Below are positions 3,350 through 61,955 of a stretch of DNA of 64,000 nt, piece by piece. The DNA is from Patescibacteria group bacterium. GTDB lineage: Bacteria > Patescibacteriota > Patescibacteriia > UBA9934. The stretch lies in NCBI GenBank assembly GCA_041661425.1, contig JBAZUI010000001.1:8507-72506 (forward strand), written 5' to 3'. The first letter of the stretch is position 1. Each line of letters starts with the position of its first letter. The notes beneath the pieces are model-generated. The model had not been told where the DNA came from, did not search any database, and worked only from the letters and a program-made list of their open reading frames with translations. The position numbers were made by a program, and so were the translations under genes.

Positions 3350-3381
3350 CCCCTCCTTAAATAAGGAGGGGTGAGGGGTGG
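3350..3381. repeat. palindromic repeat, copy 1: CCCCTCCTTAAATAAGGAGGGG + TGAGGGGTGG
   Basis: 22-nt perfect palindrome with a G-rich tail. A near-identical copy occurs at 10478-10508. Confidence 0.7.
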
Positions 3382-3391
3382 TCTTGAATTC

Positions 3392-3763
3392 ATGAATATG
3401 AATTATCGATTGTTCAATCTGAGAGATCAGAAGAAATTTCGTTCTAAGCTTAGAAATGATTCAACGGACGCCGAACAGAAGTTGTGGAGTTTTCTCCGTC
3501 ATTCTCAAATCGATAAGTTAAAATTCCGTCGACAACAAGGAATTGGACCGTACATTGTGGATTTCTATTGTCCAAAGATCAAACTCGTCGTCGAGATTGA
3601 TGGCGATTCGCATTTTGATGATCAGGGCATCGCCTACGATAAACAACGAACAGTATTTCTGCAACAGTTTGGTATTCGGGTAGTCAGATTTACGAATGTT
3701 GATATTCAAGAAACCATTGAAGGTGTGATCGAAGAAATAAGAAAAAAAATAACGTTTCGCTAG
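3392..3763 (+). CDS. DUF559 (Vsr-like endonuclease domain) protein
   Basis: Motifs KLWSFLR...FRRQQGIGPYIVDFYCP...VEIDGDSH are characteristic of the DUF559 / restriction-endonuclease-like fold. The gene is inserted between dnaK and dnaJ. Confidence 0.75.
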   Translation: MNMNYRLFNLRDQKKFRSKLRNDSTDAEQKLWSFLRHSQIDKLKFRRQQGIGPYIVDFYCPKIKLVVEIDGDSHFDDQGIAYDKQRTVFLQQFGIRVVRFTNVDIQETIEGVIEEIRKKITFR

Positions 3764-10586: not shown

Positions 10587-11045
10587 TCAGGGCGCAGCCG
10601 GCATCGAGTCGATGACAGCTGTGGGAGCTGGTGGCTCCGTCGAGAGGTCGATCTGCTCGAACCCTCCACGTGGATCGCTCGGAGGCATGGGGACTGATGG
10701 GATCCCGCCGTCCACGATGATCTGGTTGATCCTCTTGGCGTTTTCACACATCATGGGATCGCCCCCGGGCGCGCACGCCTCGACGACGTCCTGCCTCGAG
10801 CGCTCGTGCGTTCGAGCCTCGATCTTGTCGAGCTCCTCGGACTCGATCTTGTCGGGATGGGCGAGGAGCCATTCAATCCTCGCTTCGTCTTCCTCCTCCG
10901 TTGGAGTTCGCGATCCCTCGACGGCCGTGCTCATGGTTTGGAAGAGGAGGTATGACGAAACGCCTCCCACACAGATTCCTCCGGTTGCGAGACAGAGGAG
11001 GAGGATGATCACGATCAGCAGAACACTGTGTTTTCTCTTTTCCAT
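10587..11045 (-). CDS. GC-rich hypothetical membrane-anchored or secreted protein (153 aa)
   Basis: Start at MEKRK (ATG complement at 11043-11045), preceded by AGGAG. N-terminal basic stretch plus a TM helix (LLIVIILLLCLATGG), then a hydrophilic Pro/Glu-rich domain. G/C-rich codons. Confidence 0.5.
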   Translation of the reverse strand: MEKRKHSVLLIVIILLLCLATGGICVGGVSSYLLFQTMSTAVEGSRTPTEEEDEARIEWLLAHPDKIESEELDKIEARTHERSRQDVVEACAPGGDPMMCENAKRINQIIVDGGIPSVPMPPSDPRGGFEQIDLSTEPPAPTAVIDSMPAAP

Positions 11046-11091
11046 TGATGACGACTCCTGACCTGGGTTAGCTACCAGAGATGTACGTATG

Positions 11092-11120
11092 ATGTTAGAC
11101 AAGAAAAACAAATATGTCAA
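11092..11120 (-). promoter_or_regulatory. minus-strand promoter TTGACA-17-TAACAT for gene C1
   Basis: Read on the reverse complement: TTGACA at 11115-11120, TAACAT at 11092-11097, RBS AGGAG at 11055-11059. Confidence 0.5.
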
Positions 11121-11209: not shown

Positions 11210-11353
11210 CTACCTGGCCTGGAAGTACCAGGTATGCAGATTCCCCGGGCTCGGGGAGTTAATGAGGCCACGCGACTGCAACGTGGCCACGAGAATCAAG
11301 AGCGCCAAGGCCATGAAGATCATGACCCCAATCGTACGCGGATTATCCGCCAT
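11210..11353 (-). CDS. GC-rich hypothetical small membrane peptide (47 aa)
   Basis: Start at MADNP with GGAGG 5 nt upstream. One TM helix (IGVMIFMALALLILVA). The longer track ORF (71 aa) has no SD. Confidence 0.4.
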   Translation of the reverse strand: MADNPRTIGVMIFMALALLILVATLQSRGLINSPSPGNLHTWYFQAR

Positions 11354-11386
11354 CGGAGCCTCCATGGCTTTTAGTAGACGGCTATT

Positions 11387-11415
11387 AGTATGCTCCTTTT
11401 TGTCCTTTCTGTCAA
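11387..11415 (-). promoter_or_regulatory. minus-strand promoter TTGACA-17-CATACT for gene C2, divergent from the dnaX promoter region
   Basis: Reverse complement of 11410-11415 is TTGACA, and of 11387-11392 is CATACT. Confidence 0.4.
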
Positions 11416-11459
11416 CCATTTCCATTCACAGGTGGTCGTGCTAAAATGCGGCTACCTCT

Positions 11460-13071: not shown

Positions 13072-13100
13072 TTGACAGGTGCGCCTTTTTGGCGTATTAT
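13072..13100 (+). promoter_or_regulatory. sigma70-like promoter TTGACA-17-TATTAT
   Basis: Canonical hexamers with a 17-nt spacer, followed by a ~100-nt 5'UTR carrying a second palindrome. Confidence 0.55.
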
Positions 13101-13201: not shown

Positions 13202-14197
13202 ATGCTGTTCATTCTCCTTGTGGCTTGCGCGTCGCAGGTTGAGCAGGACTTCATGACTCATGACGAGGTTCTGCCTGAGGAGGAGGTTGTTGCGGAAAAA
13301 GTTTCACCGGTCCTCGCGACGATTCGACCTGAGGATGCGGCGCTCGCGGAAGCGCGACTCCTTGCGCAGAACTGTGACAACGAAGCCTTTCGGAAGGTGA
13401 CGTATCCGGATGATCCGTCGTCAACGTTCTGTCACTACATCGCGTACGCTCACTTGAGCGATCTCGAGGGTGAGTTCGATGTCTCGCAAGACATCGTCAA
13501 CCTCATCGATGTGAACTTCGAGTACATCGGGTACGAGGTGTATTGGACGACAATCGCACGCGAGAATGCGGGTTTTGCTGAGAACACTAATGTGCGATAC
13601 GTCGGTGTTCTCGAGTGGCTCTACACGCAATGGCAGGAGAAACTTGTTCAAGCGGGCCTTAAGGGAGGGGTCCGTTATAACAATCCCGCGCTCCTTCGCT
13701 CCTACCCTGCGGTTGTCACGAAATGCGAGGGCGACACGAGCTGGGGATGGACGGTTACGACTCTCAGCTACGTCGTGAGCGTGCTTCGCGGTCACCCGGG
13801 CGAGCATCACCTCTTGGACGAGAAGCTCGCCGCTGATGAGAAGATGTGGATGCGACGTGCGGCTGACACCTACCACATTGGCTGTATCGGTGACCGGGAC
13901 GAACGGAATTACGCGGAAGCGTACTTCTATTATTCCGAGGTCGGCGAAATGCCAATGGCTCGCAGGATCGCTCGCATGCAAGCCGAAGCCGGGCTTGCTC
14001 AATTGACGGGTCGAACGCCGTCATGCAACCGAGAATCCTGGTGTTCCTGGCGCCAAGGAGATCTCACCACATACATCATGTGGATGGAGAATGCGGGCAT
14101 GACGAAAGAGGAGCAATGGCTCGAGCTCAAAAAACTCGAAGCCAAACACCCGCCGCCCGAAGTCCTCGATCTCATCCGCTCTCACGAGCCGTCGTGA
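13202..14197 (+). CDS. GC-rich hypothetical lipoprotein (331 aa)
   Basis: GGAGG RBS. N-terminal MLFILLVAC is a lipobox-like signal peptide. G/C-ending codons throughout, no recognisable family. The antisense ORFs here are artefacts of GC richness. Confidence 0.55.
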   Translation: MLFILLVACASQVEQDFMTHDEVLPEEEVVAEKVSPVLATIRPEDAALAEARLLAQNCDNEAFRKVTYPDDPSSTFCHYIAYAHLSDLEGEFDVSQDIVNLIDVNFEYIGYEVYWTTIARENAGFAENTNVRYVGVLEWLYTQWQEKLVQAGLKGGVRYNNPALLRSYPAVVTKCEGDTSWGWTVTTLSYVVSVLRGHPGEHHLLDEKLAADEKMWMRRAADTYHIGCIGDRDERNYAEAYFYYSEVGEMPMARRIARMQAEAGLAQLTGRTPSCNRESWCSWRQGDLTTYIMWMENAGMTKEEQWLELKKLEAKHPPPEVLDLIRSHEPS

Positions 14198-20924: not shown

Positions 20925-20947
20925 ATCGTGATATAATAGAGAGAACT

Positions 20948-56794: not shown

Positions 56795-58171
56795 TTATTC
56801 CATCACGTCCTTGAGGTCGAGTCCAATTGGAAGAAGCGCAAGAGTTTCTGGGGCAACATCGATGACATCGCCAAACGACCATCCATATGAATTGAAGACT
56901 TGCTCCGTGGTAATGGGTCGCAATTTTTCTTCCGAGACAATATAGACAACCGGGCTATCCGTTGCTTTCACAAGATACCCATCAGCGAAGAGAAGCGGTT
57001 CACCCTCTTTGTACTGCTCAACTACCGCTGGTTCAACACGCACGATCGTGGGGGACTGCCAGCGAGAATGAATGATCGCTTCATCGACAATCGCATGGCG
57101 GATTCCGTTCTCAACATAGAAGTAGGCTCCGTTTGTCGTGAGTTGCATGAGTGCTCCTTGTGGATAGGCGGTTGTGGCGGTGATATCCTCACCGATTTCG
57201 AAATTGCCAAGTTCATCGTTTGTGATTTGGATAATTTCGTCTTCGGAATAGCCGATTGATTGGAACGTCTCTTGGGAATCAATCTGGCGGAGCGTGTCAT
57301 CCACTAAAAGATAAATGTTGTCACCTTCATCTTTTAACAAAGAATAATTCGGGAAATCAATTGGTTTTCCATCGGGGTAACTCGCAAGAACCGTTCGTGA
57401 TACTTCAATCAAACGATCTTCGTCGAAACGTGACGTAAATGCGCTCCAACTGTGGATCGGGCGTTTGTAGCCATATTCAATAAGATAAATTCCGGATTCT
57501 CCAGCCACTTGTAAGAGCGAACCCGTCGGGTACTGCAAACTAAACCAACGATTCCAAATTTCGGCAAAGTTTTCATTGCCATGAAGATGCGGGGTATAAG
57601 CATAAAGGGAAGCGGTTGCGGCATTGGCCGGAGTCACGACCGTATCGTCAATGACAATCGAAATTCCCGGTCCGTATTTTCCATACGTCACCCCCATGCT
57701 CTCGATATCCTCAAGATAGCCATCGCGCACTTGCGCGGCTGCGGAATTGACTTGTTTTCCAAATCCCTGCCAGCGCATCACATACGGATCATTTTTTGAA
57801 CAATCATCGCACACGGCATAACCCGTTGCCCAATCAAGCTGATTTTGCGTTGGGTCATCATCCTCAACAAGACTTTGTTCTTTTTGCAAAAGCACAAGAA
57901 GAAATTTTTGACTGATTCCATACGCCTGGGCCGCGCGATCAATAATATCGGTTGCCGTCCGCATCACTCCGTCCGCATCTGTTGTCACATAACTCCCAAG
58001 ATATCCGCGATCGAGAAATGCTTGAATCTGATTACGATCAAGAGCAAAAGGATTCTCGAGCTCATCATCGGAAAGAATATAGTTTGGATCAAACTCGAAG
58101 GCAAATGCCGAGCAGGGGATTGCCGCAACAATTCCCAGCGCCAAAATAAGTGAAATCTTGTGGATATTCAT
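56795..58171 (-). CDS. hypothetical secreted protein (458 aa)
   Basis: Clear signal peptide (MNIHKISLILALGIVAAIPCSAFA); no recognisable family. Confidence 0.5.
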   Translation of the reverse strand: MNIHKISLILALGIVAAIPCSAFAFEFDPNYILSDDELENPFALDRNQIQAFLDRGYLGSYVTTDADGVMRTATDIIDRAAQAYGISQKFLLVLLQKEQSLVEDDDPTQNQLDWATGYAVCDDCSKNDPYVMRWQGFGKQVNSAAAQVRDGYLEDIESMGVTYGKYGPGISIVIDDTVVTPANAATASLYAYTPHLHGNENFAEIWNRWFSLQYPTGSLLQVAGESGIYLIEYGYKRPIHSWSAFTSRFDEDRLIEVSRTVLASYPDGKPIDFPNYSLLKDEGDNIYLLVDDTLRQIDSQETFQSIGYSEDEIIQITNDELGNFEIGEDITATTAYPQGALMQLTTNGAYFYVENGIRHAIVDEAIIHSRWQSPTIVRVEPAVVEQYKEGEPLLFADGYLVKATDSPVVYIVSEEKLRPITTEQVFNSYGWSFGDVIDVAPETLALLPIGLDLKDVME

Positions 58172-58249
58172 ACGAGCAGATTATAGCATTTCCTATTCCT
58201 ATATATAAGAGGAGCTAGATTGAAAATCGCTTAAATAAGCAAAATAACC

Positions 58250-58278
58250 TTGACAAAAGGCCGATTTTATGGTATACT
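58250..58278 (+). promoter_or_regulatory. strong sigma70 promoter TTGACA-17-TGgTATACT (extended -10)
   Basis: Perfect -35, 17-nt spacer, extended TG and a near-consensus -10; drives the 41-aa peptide gene. Confidence 0.6.
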
Positions 58279-58327
58279 AATACTTGTATCAGGCAATCCC
58301 GCCTGAATCCCCGCCGGAGGACTTCCC

Positions 58328-58453
58328 ATGTCCACCCGCCCCAACAATGCCCCTTTTGGCCTTGCGAATGATATCGCGGGGCACCTCCTTTTTTCCGCCG
58401 CCGGCCTCACGCTGGCGGTCCTCATCCTTCTCTGCATGGGCACCCCTTACTAG
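58328..58453 (+). CDS. GC-rich hydrophobic micro-peptide (41 aa, one TM helix)
   Basis: GGAGGA 6 nt upstream of the ATG. Peptide MSTRPNNAPFGLANDIAGHLLFSAAGLTLAVLILLCMGTPY. Sits between a strong promoter and a hairpin terminator. Confidence 0.5.
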   Translation: MSTRPNNAPFGLANDIAGHLLFSAAGLTLAVLILLCMGTPY

Positions 58454-58472
58454 TCCATGCAGATCTCCTCGA

Positions 58473-58500
58473 CCCGCAGGCCACTTGGTTCTGCGGGTTT
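58473..58500. terminator. hairpin terminator CCCGCAG...CTGCGGG + TTT (shared by convergent genes)
   Basis: 7-bp GC stem followed by a T-run. Confidence 0.5.
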
Positions 58501-58753
58501 AGCGTTTATAAGCTGAAAGAAAATTATAGAGCCAAGCAAACACCGCACAACCTGCTGCGGCATCCACAAATCCCCAGACCGCGCCGACAATGGCGCCAAC
58601 CGGCCCGGGCACATAGCCGATATAGACCGAGGACATGAGCTCGACCAAGGCCTCGCCATAATGGAGGTACATAGCCAAGAGGGCAAGAACAAAAGAAGCG
58701 AACGACCATAAAATGTCGCCGCTTAATGCGAACGCTTTTACATTGATTGTCAT
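58499..58753 (-). CDS. hypothetical small membrane protein (84 aa, 2-3 TM)
   Basis: Hydrophobic, with Gly-rich helices (GPVGAIVGAVWGF). ORF only. Confidence 0.4.
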   Translation of the reverse strand: MTINVKAFALSGDILWSFASFVLALLAMYLHYGEALVELMSSVYIGYVPGPVGAIVGAVWGFVDAAAGCAVFAWLYNFLSAYKR

Positions 58754-58767
58754 ATAGCTGAATTATA

Positions 58768-60069
58768 TCAAATCGATTTCAATTCCTCTCGCACCACAAT
58801 GCGATCATCCCAATTTGATTTTTTTCCACCAATTACAATGGATTGCTCCGCGCCTTTTCCAGTGATAAGAATAATATCGTCCTTTTTTGCGAGCGAGAGC
58901 GCCTTGCGGATTCCCATGCGCCGATCCTCGATCACGAACAAATTTTCATTTCGAATTTTCCCGAATTTTTCTGCGACGACCGCAATGTCCTCGGCGATTT
59001 CCGTGGGATCATCTTCGTACGGATCAACATTGCTTACCACCACAAAATCCGCCATCGTGGCTGAGAGCTCACCCATGATTGGGCGTTTTGCTTTATCGCG
59101 TCCGCCACCTTCGGCCCCGAGGAGAATGATCGTCCTTGCGCCTGGTTTCTTCATGGCATTCGCGGTTTGCAAAACATGAGTGATACTTTGTTTTTCGTGT
59201 GCATAATCAACAATCACGGTAAAATCTTGCCCTTCATGGATGGTTTCCATGCGCCCGGGAATGAGGCGCAATCCCAAAAGACCGTGAGCGATTTTTTCAT
59301 CATCGATTCCGGCGAGGCGGCCAATAACCACGGCCGGCAGGGCATTTGAAACATTGAATTTTCCAAGAATGCCAAGCGTGATTTTTTTTTCGCCAAGATT
59401 GAATGAAACGCCCGAAGGTGTTTCCTCGATTTCATCCGCCCGATAATCCGCTTTTGCCTCGAGCGCATAGGTGATTTTTTTGTCCGCTGAAAAATTCAAA
59501 AAGTATTCAGCATGCTCACTATCGGCGTTTGCAATAATCACTTTTTCAATACGCTTCCCGTTGATGTTCTTTTCGTGAGTGGTGAGAGTGGCGAACATTT
59601 TTCCTTTCATGGCTTTGTATTTCTCAAAACTTCCACCGTGCGAAGGCAGATGTTCCGGAGTCAAATTTGTAAAAACGCCAATGTCATAATAAACGCCTGT
59701 CTGACGATATTGCTTTAATCCTTCCGAAGTTGTTTCGACAACGCAATAGGTACAACCCGCTTTTACCATCTGCGCCAGAAACTTTTGAATAACCCATCGC
59801 CCCGGCATAGTCATGTGATACTCGTTCATCATCTCTGTTTTTCCAATCCGAATATTTGCCGTGCTCACAATTCCGGTTTCCAGCCCACCAGCCATAAGGA
59901 CGGACCAGATAAAATTCGCGGTAGATGTTTTTCCTTTTGTTCCGGTGACGCCAATCACGATCATTTTCTTGGACGGAAATCCATAAAAAATCGCGGCCGT
60001 CATGGAGACGCAATAATGATAACCAAGAATTAATCGCTCAGGGATGATTTTCTTTAATAGCTTTTTCAT
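58768..60069 (-). CDS. Mur ligase-family protein (MurE-like)
   Basis: P-loop GVTGTKGKTST, Mur ligase middle-domain motifs (TTSEG, TNLTPEHL) and a C-terminal domain. Confidence 0.75.
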   Translation of the reverse strand: MKKLLKKIIPERLILGYHYCVSMTAAIFYGFPSKKMIVIGVTGTKGKTSTANFIWSVLMAGGLETGIVSTANIRIGKTEMMNEYHMTMPGRWVIQKFLAQMVKAGCTYCVVETTSEGLKQYRQTGVYYDIGVFTNLTPEHLPSHGGSFEKYKAMKGKMFATLTTHEKNINGKRIEKVIIANADSEHAEYFLNFSADKKITYALEAKADYRADEIEETPSGVSFNLGEKKITLGILGKFNVSNALPAVVIGRLAGIDDEKIAHGLLGLRLIPGRMETIHEGQDFTVIVDYAHEKQSITHVLQTANAMKKPGARTIILLGAEGGGRDKAKRPIMGELSATMADFVVVSNVDPYEDDPTEIAEDIAVVAEKFGKIRNENLFVIEDRRMGIRKALSLAKKDDIILITGKGAEQSIVIGGKKSNWDDRIVVREELKSI

Positions 60070-60145
60070 ACCTGGGAATTTTAGCAGTTTGGAGCGATTT
60101 GTTCAAAAATCGTTTGCGAAAAAAAATACCCGAGGAATGCTCTGG

Positions 60146-60164
60146 TATTTTTGGTGGACCTTAA
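60146..60164. repeat. direct repeat duplicating the 3' end of tRNA-Ala (tggtggaccttaagggatt)
   Basis: 19-20 nt exact match to 60339-60357; a structured GC-rich ~175-bp segment lies between the copies. Confidence 0.6.
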
Positions 60165-60338
60165 GGGATTTGGCTTCGGCTCTCGTGTCGCCGTCGCTCC
60201 ACTCGGCCTAGCCACCGCCTCGCCATTCCGCCTGCTGGCGGAATAGGGCTCCGGCGTTCGAATCCCCCCGCAAGCCAAATTATTGGCTTGCTCGAAATAC
60301 CAACCCACAAGACTCCAAATTTTTGAAACGCTGTGGGT

Positions 60339-60414
60339 TGGTGGACCTTAAGGGATTCGAACCCTTGACCTCTTCCATGCCATGGAAGCGCTCTAGCCAA
60401 CTGAGCTAAAGGCC
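60339..60414 (-). tRNA. tRNA-Ala (anticodon GGC)
   Basis: Reverse complement GGGCCTT-TA-GCTC-AGTTGGCTA-GAGC-G-CTTCC-ATGGCAT-GGAAG-AGGTC-AAGGG-TTCGAAT-CCCTT-AAGGTCC-A-CCA folds into a canonical cloverleaf. Confidence 0.8.
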
Positions 60415-60487
60415 CTTACCGCGAAAGAATAATAGTAAAAAACGTTCTTTTTGTAAAGAAGGGCATCTTGAGATAAAATAGAGACCT

Positions 60488-60817
60488 ATGAATTTCTCCG
60501 AATATCAAGAAAAGTCACGAAAAACCGCTCTTTACCCCGATCTTGGAAAGAATTTTATTTATCCAACGCTTGGACTTTGCGGAGAAAGCGGTGAGATTGC
60601 GGAGAAGGTCAAGAAAATTATCCGCGATGAAGGTGGAGTGATTACGGAAGAGAAGCGCGTAGAACTTAAAAAAGAATTTGGTGATGTACTCTGGTACTTG
60701 GCGCAACTTGCCACGGAATTCGGGATGGATTTTGATGATGTTGCCTTAACGAATATTGAAAAGCTGAAATCACGCATGGACCGCAATCAAATCTACGGAA
60801 GTGGGGATAATCGATAA
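60488..60817 (+). CDS. MazG-like nucleoside triphosphate pyrophosphohydrolase (small all-alpha NTP-PPase)
   Basis: GLCGESGEIAEKVKK...EELGDVLWYLAQLA is the MazG/HisE-like EExxE metal-binding signature. Confidence 0.7.
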   Translation: MNFSEYQEKSRKTALYPDLGKNFIYPTLGLCGESGEIAEKVKKIIRDEGGVITEEKRVELKKEFGDVLWYLAQLATEFGMDFDDVALTNIEKLKSRMDRNQIYGSGDNR

Positions 60818-60826
60818 GTCAAAGTT

Positions 60827-60850
60827 AAAATCGGCCCGTGGGCCGATTTT
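60827..60850. terminator. bidirectional terminator AAAATCGGCCC-GTG-GGCCGATTTT
   Basis: Perfect 11-bp stem flanked by A/T runs between convergent genes. Confidence 0.7.
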
Positions 60851-61340
60851 ATCGTTGAAGAATAGAGTCAATAATTTCGTGGGCTCTCGTTTTTATTCGA
60901 TTGAATGTTGAAACAATTACTGGCGTACGATCGTTCGTCCGAATATCGAAGGCATTTGGTTCTGTTGCATTTGGGTAGATCTTTTCCACGGCAGCCCCCG
61001 GTGGGGTATAAAATTTTTGAACGGTTATTGGCGTGCGCTCCGTTGTCGCCCCTGGTGGGGTATAGAAAGGATCGTCTGCTACTTGAACCTCATCAAGAAT
61101 TTTTTTTCGCTCTGCATCGCCCGATGCAGCATTCTGATTCATAACGCGATGCATTTCTTCTTCTTGCGCCCGCGTTCTTGCTGTTTCTTGTGCGGTAAAT
61201 TCACGCGCCTCTTTTTTGTCTTTTTGTTTATCTCTTTCAAGAATTGGCGGGGAATATTCCATACCTCGATGCCCGGGATCCGGCTGACTCATGCGTTCTT
61301 CACCATTGGGTAACTTATAGATGAATCTCATATTGATCAA
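60849..61340 (-). CDS. hypothetical protein with a tandem FYTPPGA repeat
   Basis: ORF; internal tandem repeat PFYTPPGATTERTPITVQKFYTPPGAAVEKIYP. Confidence 0.4.
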   Translation of the reverse strand: MINMRFIYKLPNGEERMSQPDPGHRGMEYSPPILERDKQKDKKEAREFTAQETARTRAQEEEMHRVMNQNAASGDAERKKILDEVQVADDPFYTPPGATTERTPITVQKFYTPPGAAVEKIYPNATEPNAFDIRTNDRTPVIVSTFNRIKTRAHEIIDSILQR

Positions 61341-61955
61341 CTATTCTAGGCCTAAAAAATTTCGAATTCCGCTTCGTGCTCGTTGAACAAACGAAGGAAT
61401 TTTGATTTCTTCTGTCGTAGGTTCTTCTTTTTCATCTTCGATTACCGGCTCCGCATCATAGTCGAGGGCGCGATCTGCTCGAAGCGCATCTGGATCCTGA
61501 TAGCGTTCATCCGATGGATCATTGGCAAGTTTATTTATTTTTAATCGTTTTTGTTCTTTTTTATCAGATTTGAGTAACCGTCGAAGCATTTCTGCTGTTA
61601 TTTCGTAGGTGGCATCAACAGGCTGATTCCGTGCAATGGCTTCCAAAAACGCATCGACGTCTTCCGGGATAGGGTCGTGTTCCCGCATTGTTAGTAAATA
61701 ATTTTCTAACTTTTTTTTAAGCGATTCTTTATCGGCCTGAACTTCAGCCTCACTCCTCGCTGACCCTTCCATTCTCATGGCTTGCGCATGCTCCTCGTCC
61801 ATTGATTTCTTAAACCCGTAACGCGCTTCTAGTTGTTCTTGAATGCGTTTTGAACGATCTTCCGCGTTTTCCGCTGAGTGCGTTTCTTGAATCCTTGACG
61901 TTTGACGCTCACTCTCGGCAGGCGATATCCGCTCATTTTCTAAACGTAAATTCAT
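61341..61955 (-). CDS. hypothetical charged/coiled-coil-like protein
   Basis: ORF rich in E/K/R; no recognisable family. Confidence 0.4.
   Translation of the reverse strand: MNLRLENERISPAESERQTSRIQETHSAENAEDRSKRIQEQLEARYGFKKSMDEEHAQAMRMEGSARSEAEVQADKESLKKKLENYLLTMREHDPIPEDVDAFLEAIARNQPVDATYEITAEMLRRLLKSDKKEQKRLKINKLANDPSDERYQDPDALRADRALDYDAEPVIEDEKEEPTTEEIKIPSFVQRARSGIRNFLGLE

Follow-up and report, generated by a model that had tools for sequence, protein, structure and literature searches.

Does the short spacer that breaks into a run of minus-strand genes in a Patescibacteria genome contain a gene of its own, and if so, what would this gene encode? The stretch analysed here (the window) comprises 64,000 nucleotides (nt) of contig JBAZUI010000001.1; among public genomes, the closest to it have been assembled from metagenomes and carry the labels Patescibacteria, 'Candidatus Uhrbacteria' or 'Saccharibacteria'. 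The spacer of 327 nt separates two minus-strand genes encoding proteins of 458 and 84 amino acids (aa), and it is the site of a plus-strand unit made up of a promoter, a Shine-Dalgarno (SD) sequence, an open reading frame (ORF) of 41 codons and a terminal hairpin. On balance, and with the reservations discussed below, we regard the unit as a true micro-gene that codes for a protein and has escaped annotation, its product being a small membrane peptide with a single helix. As far as can be seen, this gene is confined to a narrow lineage of the Patescibacteria.

A short plus-strand unit with strong expression signals

The sigma-70-type promoter of the unit (58250-58278, plus strand) consists of the -35 hexamer TTGACA (58250-58255), a 17-nt spacer ending in TGG, which provides the TG of an extended -10 region (58270-58271), and the -10 hexamer TATACT (58273-58278). 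With a score of 11/12 relative to the sigma-70 consensus in addition to the TG, the sequence TTGACA-17-TGgTATACT is the top match in a scan of the region from 56 to 61 kb and also across the whole window on both strands, in agreement with the original prediction, which had placed it among the best promoters of the window. Sites that score at least 11/12 and carry the TG are rare: First-order Markov simulations of the window gave an expectation of 0.07 per window. Transcription would start at about position 58285, and the leader between promoter and ATG has a length of 44 nt.

The ORF (41 codons plus stop, 58328-58453, plus strand) is preceded by the SD sequence GGAGGA (58316-58321), located 6 nt upstream of the ATG at 58328. 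Its assignment as the gene for a small membrane peptide is based on the list of ORFs, on frame-specific conservation, on a period-3 composition and on hydropathy. The peptide, MSTRPNNAPFGLANDIAGHLLFSAAGLTLAVLILLCMGTPY, has a polar N-terminus (residues 1-18) followed by a predicted transmembrane (TM) helix (residues 19-38, approximately). Thus, the SD sequence and the one-TM peptide ORF behind a dedicated promoter are present as had been proposed. The list of ORFs also contains an overlapping, TTG-initiated frame of 72 aa (58284-58502, plus strand).

The peptide frame is conserved in a sister species

The closest relative of the 458-aa protein (P0027, 77% identity) is encoded on the metagenome locus L009, of which L010 is an identical copy. 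At the matching place, and again divergent from the gene for the 458-aa protein, L009 carries a unit with a TTGACA-17-TATGAT promoter, the SD sequence GGAGGA, the start ATG-TCC-ACC, an ORF of 39 codons and a terminal hairpin. The deduced 39-aa peptide, MSTQLSPRSSAIINNIAGTLLFGALGIFCLWLLIKWVES, contains a C-terminal TM helix, and the Kyte-Doolittle maxima over 19 residues are 2.40 for the window peptide and 2.38 for the L009 peptide. The guanine-plus-cytosine (GC) content of this unit is 61%, inside a locus of 48% GC.

In a blastn comparison of the window with L009, the similarity is limited to 32 nt covering the SD sequence and the start codon (87.5% identity). The two ORFs can be aligned without gaps over 39 codons with a nucleotide identity of 49%, as compared to a random expectation of 28%. 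This similarity resides in the peptide frame: In the 41-aa frame, the local BLOSUM62 score was 53 as compared to 19.8±4.0 for shuffled sequences (attained by none of 2000 shuffles), whereas the 72-aa TTG frame (31 against 27.4±5.2; 497 of 2000 shuffles) and the third frame (37 against 27.6±5.4; 129 of 2000) both remained at shuffle level. The original prediction had reckoned with the case that the 72-aa frame, and not the peptide frame, might be the conserved one; the outcome is the opposite. Thirteen residues are identical in the two orthologues, four of them by way of synonymous codons, and they include the core N-x-I-A-G-x-L-L-F-x-A-x-G at the start of the TM helix, which is hydrophobic in both species. 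Moreover, the hydrophobicity of the helix has been kept in spite of a change of 51% of the nucleotides. The C-termini are not conserved: the window peptide ends with GTPY, the L009 peptide with KWVES.

Both ORFs also exhibit a codon-position bias. The GC contents at the first, second and third codon positions are 0.61, 0.49 and 0.76 in the window ORF (p = 0.03) and 0.44, 0.46 and 0.87 in the L009 ORF (Fisher p = 8e-6), and adenine at the third position is found in none of the 41 codons in the window (p = 0.0012) and in one of the 39 codons in L009 (p = 0.011). Taken together, the sequence data speak in favour of translation in the 41-aa frame.

The predicted mRNA is highly structured

The plus strand of the region 58284-58505 is predicted to fold with a free energy of -93 kcal/mol, corresponding to z = -5.5 as compared to dinucleotide shuffles; for the minus strand of the same region, z is only -1.9. 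Similarly, the L009 mRNA has a z value of -4.3, which applies to the sense strand only, and its hairpins occupy equivalent positions with other sequences. Minimum free energy folds suggest a hairpin in the 5' untranslated region (UCAGGC-AAUCCC-GCCUGA, 58289-58306, plus strand), at the position of which L009 carries a different small hairpin. A second predicted hairpin (58313-58339, plus strand) covers the translation initiation region: Codons 2-3 (GUCCACC) form the stem with the SD sequence, leaving the AUG in the loop, with a local free energy of about -8 kcal/mol. The probability that the SD bases are unpaired is approximately 0 in the window as well as in L009, and the pairing partners are predicted alike. 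The stretch from the SD sequence to codon 3 is the only block conserved between the two species at the nucleotide level, and we attribute this to the pairing of the SD sequence with codons 2-3 in both of them. Downstream, folding predicts three GC-rich hairpins, which extend from within the ORF to beyond its stop codon (about 58359-58382, 58397-58419 and 58431-58463, plus strand).

The unit ends with a predicted terminal hairpin (58471-58498, plus strand), a strong stem that is followed by a U-rich tail, the entire element extending from 58471 to 58509. This hairpin abuts the stop codon (58499-58501) of the convergent gene encoding the 84-aa protein. The idea that it serves as a terminator shared with the convergent gene is borne out as far as the position is concerned; the U-run of the tail (UUUAGCGUUUAU) is, however, interrupted, and the element was not listed by a terminator scan. 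It is probably a non-canonical terminator. In L009, the analogous element (CCCGCGG...CGCGGG followed by AUUCGCCUUUUAU) abuts the stop codon of a mazG gene.

No known family matches the unit

The ORF has not been called as a gene in public collections, and protein databases are therefore blind to the peptide. With the 41-aa and 72-aa ORFs, no family was detected in Pfam at E<=0.01 or in NCBIfam at E<=0.1; PHROGs, searched with the 41-aa ORF only, yielded no family at E<=0.01, and an exact look-up of the 41-aa peptide returned no record. A copy found in the Logan data set SRR18595301 is 100% identical, so that it adds no information. When a hidden Markov model of the peptide was compared with the six-frame ORFs of loci L001-L089, the sole match was L010, which is identical to L009. 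The search for homologous peptides proposed with the original prediction has thus led to one orthologue, by way of synteny, while phmmer did not retrieve small homologues. The species representatives of GTDB that were found via MurE (L001-L004) possess neither the unit nor a gene for a holin_4 protein, the family of the convergent 84-aa protein (see below), and are uninformative.

On the RNA level, the covariance models of Rfam 15 gave no match on either strand at E<=1 in the region 57000-61500 and none even at E<=10 in the 301 nt from 58230 to 58530, and ARAGORN identified no tRNA or tmRNA at the unit. Known non-coding RNAs (6S RNA, SRP RNA, RNase P, tmRNA, riboswitches) can thus be ruled out. 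The same is true for a repeat or a mobile cassette: the unit is present as a single copy in the window and has no phage match, the one pattern match obtained in IMG/VR being a chance match within a GC-rich phage gene.

High GC content probably reflects a maintained bias

The region 58300-58499 has a GC content of 62.5% as compared to 47.3% for the window. While the GC richness noted before is real, it is no evidence for the foreign origin that had been assumed: The excess sits at the third codon positions, where the GC content (GC3) of the ORF and of its L009 orthologue (see above) contrasts with a window mean of 0.466±0.062, and since this excess has been kept in both orthologues at a nucleotide identity of 49%, we regard it as a maintained bias in codon usage or RNA structure. 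It is also common to envelope genes and to the genes that occupy the same place in relatives (see below).

SD sequences are scarce in this genome: even a 4-mer is present in front of only 5 out of 28 long genes. Many genes have instead a TATAAT-like -10 region, often with a TG, about 8-10 nt before the ATG (e. g. 58180-58188, 60070-60090 and 20930-20947). The position of these elements and the rarity of SD sequences suggest that most mRNAs of this organism are leaderless or have very short leaders. The combination of a strong promoter, a strong SD sequence and a high GC3 is rare, and the 41-aa ORF has it in common with a lipoprotein gene (13202-14197, plus strand; 11/12 promoter at 13072, SD sequence CTGGAGG, GC3 of 0.67, lipobox LVAC). 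A gene for a TM-anchored protein of about 150 aa (10587-11120, minus strand) has a GC3 of 0.69 and is located behind 10/12 promoters at 11415 and 11120. Together with these two genes, the 41-aa gene looks like a member of a group of envelope genes that have strong expression signals and prefer codons ending in G or C. Near the gene at 10587-11120, there is also an ORF of 71 aa with a TM segment (11210-11425, minus strand).

The promoter occupies a conserved slot with variable cargo

The only conserved neighbour, and the positional anchor, of the peptide unit is the gene encoding the 458-aa protein. We examined 80 metagenome loci of this protein family (L010-L089, within the set L001-L089) as well as five further loci (L090-L094); for about 50 of these loci, the sequence upstream of the gene was scanned. 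A promoter of the type TTGACAAAA...TGnTATAnT that is divergent from the gene was found in L009, L013, L017, L018/19/82, L021/22/24, L030, L046, L049 and L090. The occurrence of the same promoter across the relatives indicates that it is native and old, whereas its cargo is lineage-specific. In four additional relatives with 62-63% identity (within L090-L094), a leader RNA or other neighbours take the place of the peptide.

This leader RNA or sRNA of about 170 nt directly follows the slot promoter in relatives and is characterized by the core ACAAUUnGAGAGAGCCC-N8-GGGUAAAAGA and an intrinsic terminator. Copies were identified by sequence on the minus strand of L018 (2052-2245), L022 (1972-2141), L021 (192-361), L030 (818-969) and L046 (2241-2413); L013, L049 and L090 harbour diverged versions. 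The covarying pairs ACUUCU/AGAAGU, GCUUCU/AGAAGC and GGUCU/AGACC suggest a pseudoknot, which is followed by a covarying middle hairpin and then by the terminator, all upstream of a GC-rich lipoprotein gene. No Rfam family matched the leader RNA at the gathering threshold or at E<=5, and on the basis of its sequence we regard it as a candidate for a new cis-regulatory RNA. The lipoproteins encoded downstream of it in L013, L017, L022, L046 and L049 (166-185 aa, minus strand) are homologous and fast-evolving, with mutual identities of 27-34%, and their genes have a GC content of 56-64% in loci of 38-47% GC. In L018 and L030, a hydrophobic ORF of 26-29 aa is present behind the leader RNA. All of these positional analogues of the peptide gene are GC-rich ORFs with N-terminal hydrophobic helices; high GC3 is a property of whatever the slot promoter expresses and would be maintained for expression or for mRNA structure, rather than being the trace of a recent import.

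Both the leader RNA and the lipoprotein gene are absent from this place in the window and in L009, where the 41-aa and 39-aa genes directly follow the promoter, and the lipoprotein family was not found anywhere in the window. That the unit might be a diverged copy of the leader RNA was ruled out: nhmmer detected no similarity between the two, and the position of the unit corresponds to that of the downstream GC-rich ORF. Nor is the peptide the truncated signal peptide of a lipoprotein: It is dissimilar to the lipoproteins of L013, L017, L022, L046 and L049, it starts with 18 polar residues, and a lipobox (L-[AS]-[GA]-C) is absent, the corresponding sequences being LLC-M in the window and IFC-L in L009. 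Between the peptide promoter and the gene for the 458-aa protein, L009 contains a long palindromic element (GTCATCCTGAG...CTCAGGATGAC, 3375-3445, recognized by eye), which accounts for the longer spacer in this locus and may be a miniature repeat element.

The neighbouring genes are related to the cell wall

The divergent gene (56795-58171, minus strand) encodes a membrane-anchored protein of 458 aa and has its own -10 region (TGCTATAAT, 58180-58188) about 9 nt before the ATG. The protein belongs to a large family of the Patescibacteria (1575 matches) and has no Pfam domain. Its structural model (predicted local distance difference test score of 87.6) gave Foldseek matches to the glucosaminidases AtlE, Atl, SagB and LytB and to EccB; according to the model, the protein resembles an autolysin with an N-terminal GH73-like glucosaminidase fold and four C-terminal EccB-like repeats. 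The sequences QKEQSL and YAYTPH are invariant in the family alignment and are candidates for active-site motifs.

On the other side, the convergent gene (58499-58753, minus strand) encodes the 84-aa membrane protein of the holin_4 family (NCBIfam NF037947, 83.4 bits at a cutoff of 70), and a gene for a MurE-type Mur ligase (58768-60069, minus strand) is located upstream of it. Given that its neighbours encode MurE, a holin-like and an autolysin-like protein, the peptide gene is embedded in a cell-wall context. A holin_4 gene is found directly upstream of the gene for the 458-aa protein in L020, L033 and L012, and if the window is counted as a fourth lineage, this suggests a chromosomal holin-autolysin pair in Patescibacteria. 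In contrast, the link of the small membrane protein gene to the peptide unit is not conserved: In L009 the convergent gene is mazG and there is no holin_4 gene beside the peptide, and elsewhere homologues of holin_4 occur without the unit in unrelated contexts. A functional pairing of the two was thus ruled out.

Further upstream, the 3' end of the tRNA-Ala(GGC) gene (60339-60415, minus strand) is present as a 19-nt direct repeat (60153-60171 and 60340-60358), which looks like the remnant att site of a tRNA-targeted integration. For the approximately 168 nt between the two copies (56-61% GC), neither Rfam nor ARAGORN gave a match. As compared to L009, the tRNA-Ala/mazG segment is inverted, and the genes for MurE and holin_4 lie between this segment and the peptide unit.

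Discussion

The case for a peptide gene is built on the sequence signals, on a reading frame kept in both species, on the bias between codon positions, on synteny and on the predicted RNA fold, and it is from these that we infer transcription, translation, abundance, membrane insertion and function. According to the proposed model, the near-consensus promoter with its extended -10 region would fire strongly and give rise to a monocistronic transcript of about 215 nt that combines the 44-nt leader, an SD sequence of a strength rare in this genome and the 41-codon ORF. The GC-rich hairpins, which are built largely from G/C-ending codons, would probably make this mRNA long-lived, and the conserved hairpin that engages the SD sequence with codons 2-3 at about -8 kcal/mol would keep initiation throttled or make it conditional. 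The product would be a single-pass membrane peptide whose motif of small residues, N-x-I-A-G-x-L-L-F-x-A-x-G, would suit helix-helix packing. Most likely, it would not be a toxin but an abundant envelope micro-protein, i. e. a structural or regulatory partner of the machinery of membrane or cell wall, and its gene would fill a conserved 'high-expression slot' divergent from the gene for the GH73-like autolysin.

Several observations weigh against this interpretation. There are only two independent sequences, and since L009 and L010 are identical, the statistics rest on a single pairwise comparison. The two peptides share just 33% of their residues and the nucleotide differences are spread evenly over the codon positions (20/17/23), which makes it impossible to quantify purifying selection. 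An open frame of this length is unsurprising in a sequence of this composition (P = 0.47 upon shuffling), and ORF length was therefore dropped as uninformative with respect to coding. A constraint on the RNA level, namely the SD hairpin, could account for the part of the frame-0 score that stems from the start region. Folding of this strength would suit a structured small RNA (sRNA) equally well. The ORF was called by no pipeline, and a phmmer search against 1.84 billion representatives gave five matches, all of them long repetitive proteins, and no small homologue; we judge this search underpowered for a query of 41 aa, as even the true orthologue from L009 would, by our estimate, score only about 25 bits.

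The original prediction had compared the unit to type I toxin loci, in which case a stable, structured mRNA would be silenced by the SD hairpin and by an antisense RNA, and the peptide, once translated, would damage the membrane. The criteria for such loci include an ORF of less than 70 aa with a predicted TM region, an RNA antitoxin from a cis-antisense or nearby sRNA gene with its own promoter, tandem or multiple copies, and a wide distance from the neighbouring genes (400 nt and 250 nt or more); a polar or aromatic C-terminus is listed for the toxins (Fozo et al. 2010, PMC2887945). The two ORFs, with 41 aa and 39 aa and one TM helix each, agree with this in size and topology, the SD sequence is fully paired in a highly structured mRNA in both species, and the K-W-V-E-S end of the L009 peptide is of the polar/aromatic type listed for type I toxins (PMC2887945). 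The antisense RNA might originate from an opposite-strand promoter that was not recognized or from read-through out of the convergent neighbour, which is possible in both species because the convergent gene ends exactly at the terminal hairpin. A relaxed scan of the opposite strand, blind as a consensus scan is to atypical promoters and to read-through, revealed a single site in the window (TTGTGC-16-TATAAT, 9/12, minus strand, about 58550-58523, inside the gene for the 84-aa protein) but none of at least 8/12 in L009, and hence no conserved antisense promoter. Moreover, the strongest promoter of the window is on the sense side, which would put the cell at risk if a toxin were left unguarded; the window contains neither a tandem array nor another copy; the distances to the start of the gene for the 458-aa protein (157 nt) and to the stop of the gene for the 84-aa protein (46 nt) fall short of the typical 250-400 nt; the C-terminus (GTPY versus KWVES) is not conserved; and Pfam, NCBIfam and PHROGs contain no matching toxin family. 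Finally, the unit is inherited syntenically, and the same slot holds an ordinary lipoprotein gene in relatives. A toxin of this kind is thus rather doubtful. It would be a more far-reaching and quite improbable step to see here the first type I toxin-like or dual-function RNA module in Patescibacteria, in which an SD-locked mRNA would release a membrane-active 41-aa peptide upon a trigger, antisense RNA would come from the convergent gene (holin_4 here, mazG in the sister species), and the whole would serve as a switch for lysis or envelope remodelling at the side of the autolysin gene.

Two further possibilities do without a functional peptide. If the unit encoded a structured non-coding sRNA, the ORF would be there by chance, and the block conserved around SD sequence and AUG would represent an RNA motif, for instance a seed or a binding site for a protein. 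This idea agrees with the folding of the sense strand (z = -5.5 in the window and -4.3 in L009) and with the equivalent location of the hairpins in both species. Moreover, the one block in which the nucleotide sequence is conserved is a predicted hairpin, open frames are expected by chance here, and the slot promoter in relatives first yields a non-coding leader RNA. We still consider it unlikely: The similarity of the peptides is frame-specific, third-position G/C excess and avoidance of adenine in the same frame of both species are not to be expected for a non-coding RNA, the hydrophobicity of the TM helix has outlasted the change of half of the nucleotides (51%), GGAGGA, an SD sequence and thus an element rare in this genome, is placed at the optimal distance of 5-6 nt from the ATG, and Rfam contains no match. 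Alternatively, the unit might be a decaying remnant without function, namely a short hydrophobic ORF and a still-active promoter that stayed when leader RNA and lipoprotein gene were lost, or a mere insulator of convergent transcription between the MurE-holin_4 genes and the autolysin gene. This would be in line with the interruption of a run of minus-strand genes, with the lipoprotein of 166-185 aa encoded at this place in relatives and with the ORFs of only 26-29 aa in L018 and L030. However, the peptide resembles no lipoprotein signal peptide and has no lipobox, and the length, start and frame of the ORF, the GC3, the SD hairpin and the mRNA structure have all been kept at 49% nucleotide identity, quite unlike neutral decay, and render this possibility very improbable.

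The favoured small membrane peptide has counterparts in other bacteria, where small membrane proteins such as AcrZ, MgrB, KdpF and CydX are encoded by small ORFs that had escaped annotation. As in these cases, the peptide has about 40 aa and a single TM helix, its gene possesses its own promoter and terminator, it has been missed by gene callers and its phylogenetic range is narrow; in contrast to them, the expression signals are unusually strong and the mRNA is unusually GC-rich and structured, and there is no relationship in sequence. With Hok/Sok, Fst, Ldr, TisB, Ibs/Sib and ZorO, the unit shares the short hydrophobic ORF, the structured mRNA, the sequestered SD sequence and the intergenic, unannotated location. 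It differs from these type I loci by the tight spacing, the strongest promoter on the 'toxin' side and the lack of a conserved antisense promoter, of tandem repeats, of a conserved polar cluster at the C-terminus and of homology to known toxins. A third likeness is provided by lpp of E. coli, a highly expressed envelope protein gene with a stable mRNA: Here, too, a small envelope protein gene is combined with a very strong promoter, a good SD sequence and a structured, presumably stable monocistronic mRNA, and in relatives the slot even encodes a lipoprotein. In contrast to Lpp, the peptide is half as large and has no lipobox or signal peptidase site, and its abundance is judged from the signals alone.

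Annotation systematically overlooks small membrane proteins in genomes of uncultured bacteria of the candidate phyla radiation (CPR)/Patescibacteria. These reduced episymbionts meet their host through the envelope, and given that the unit has the strongest expression signals in 64 kb, its peptide may belong to the more abundant constituents of the envelope in this lineage. The locus presents itself as a conserved promoter slot next to an autolysin-like gene, the cargo of which, leader RNA and lipoprotein or micro-peptide, has been exchanged between lineages while the preference for G/C-ending codons has been kept. If this interpretation is correct, the slot would help to understand how these bacteria single out and adjust the surface genes that they express most strongly.

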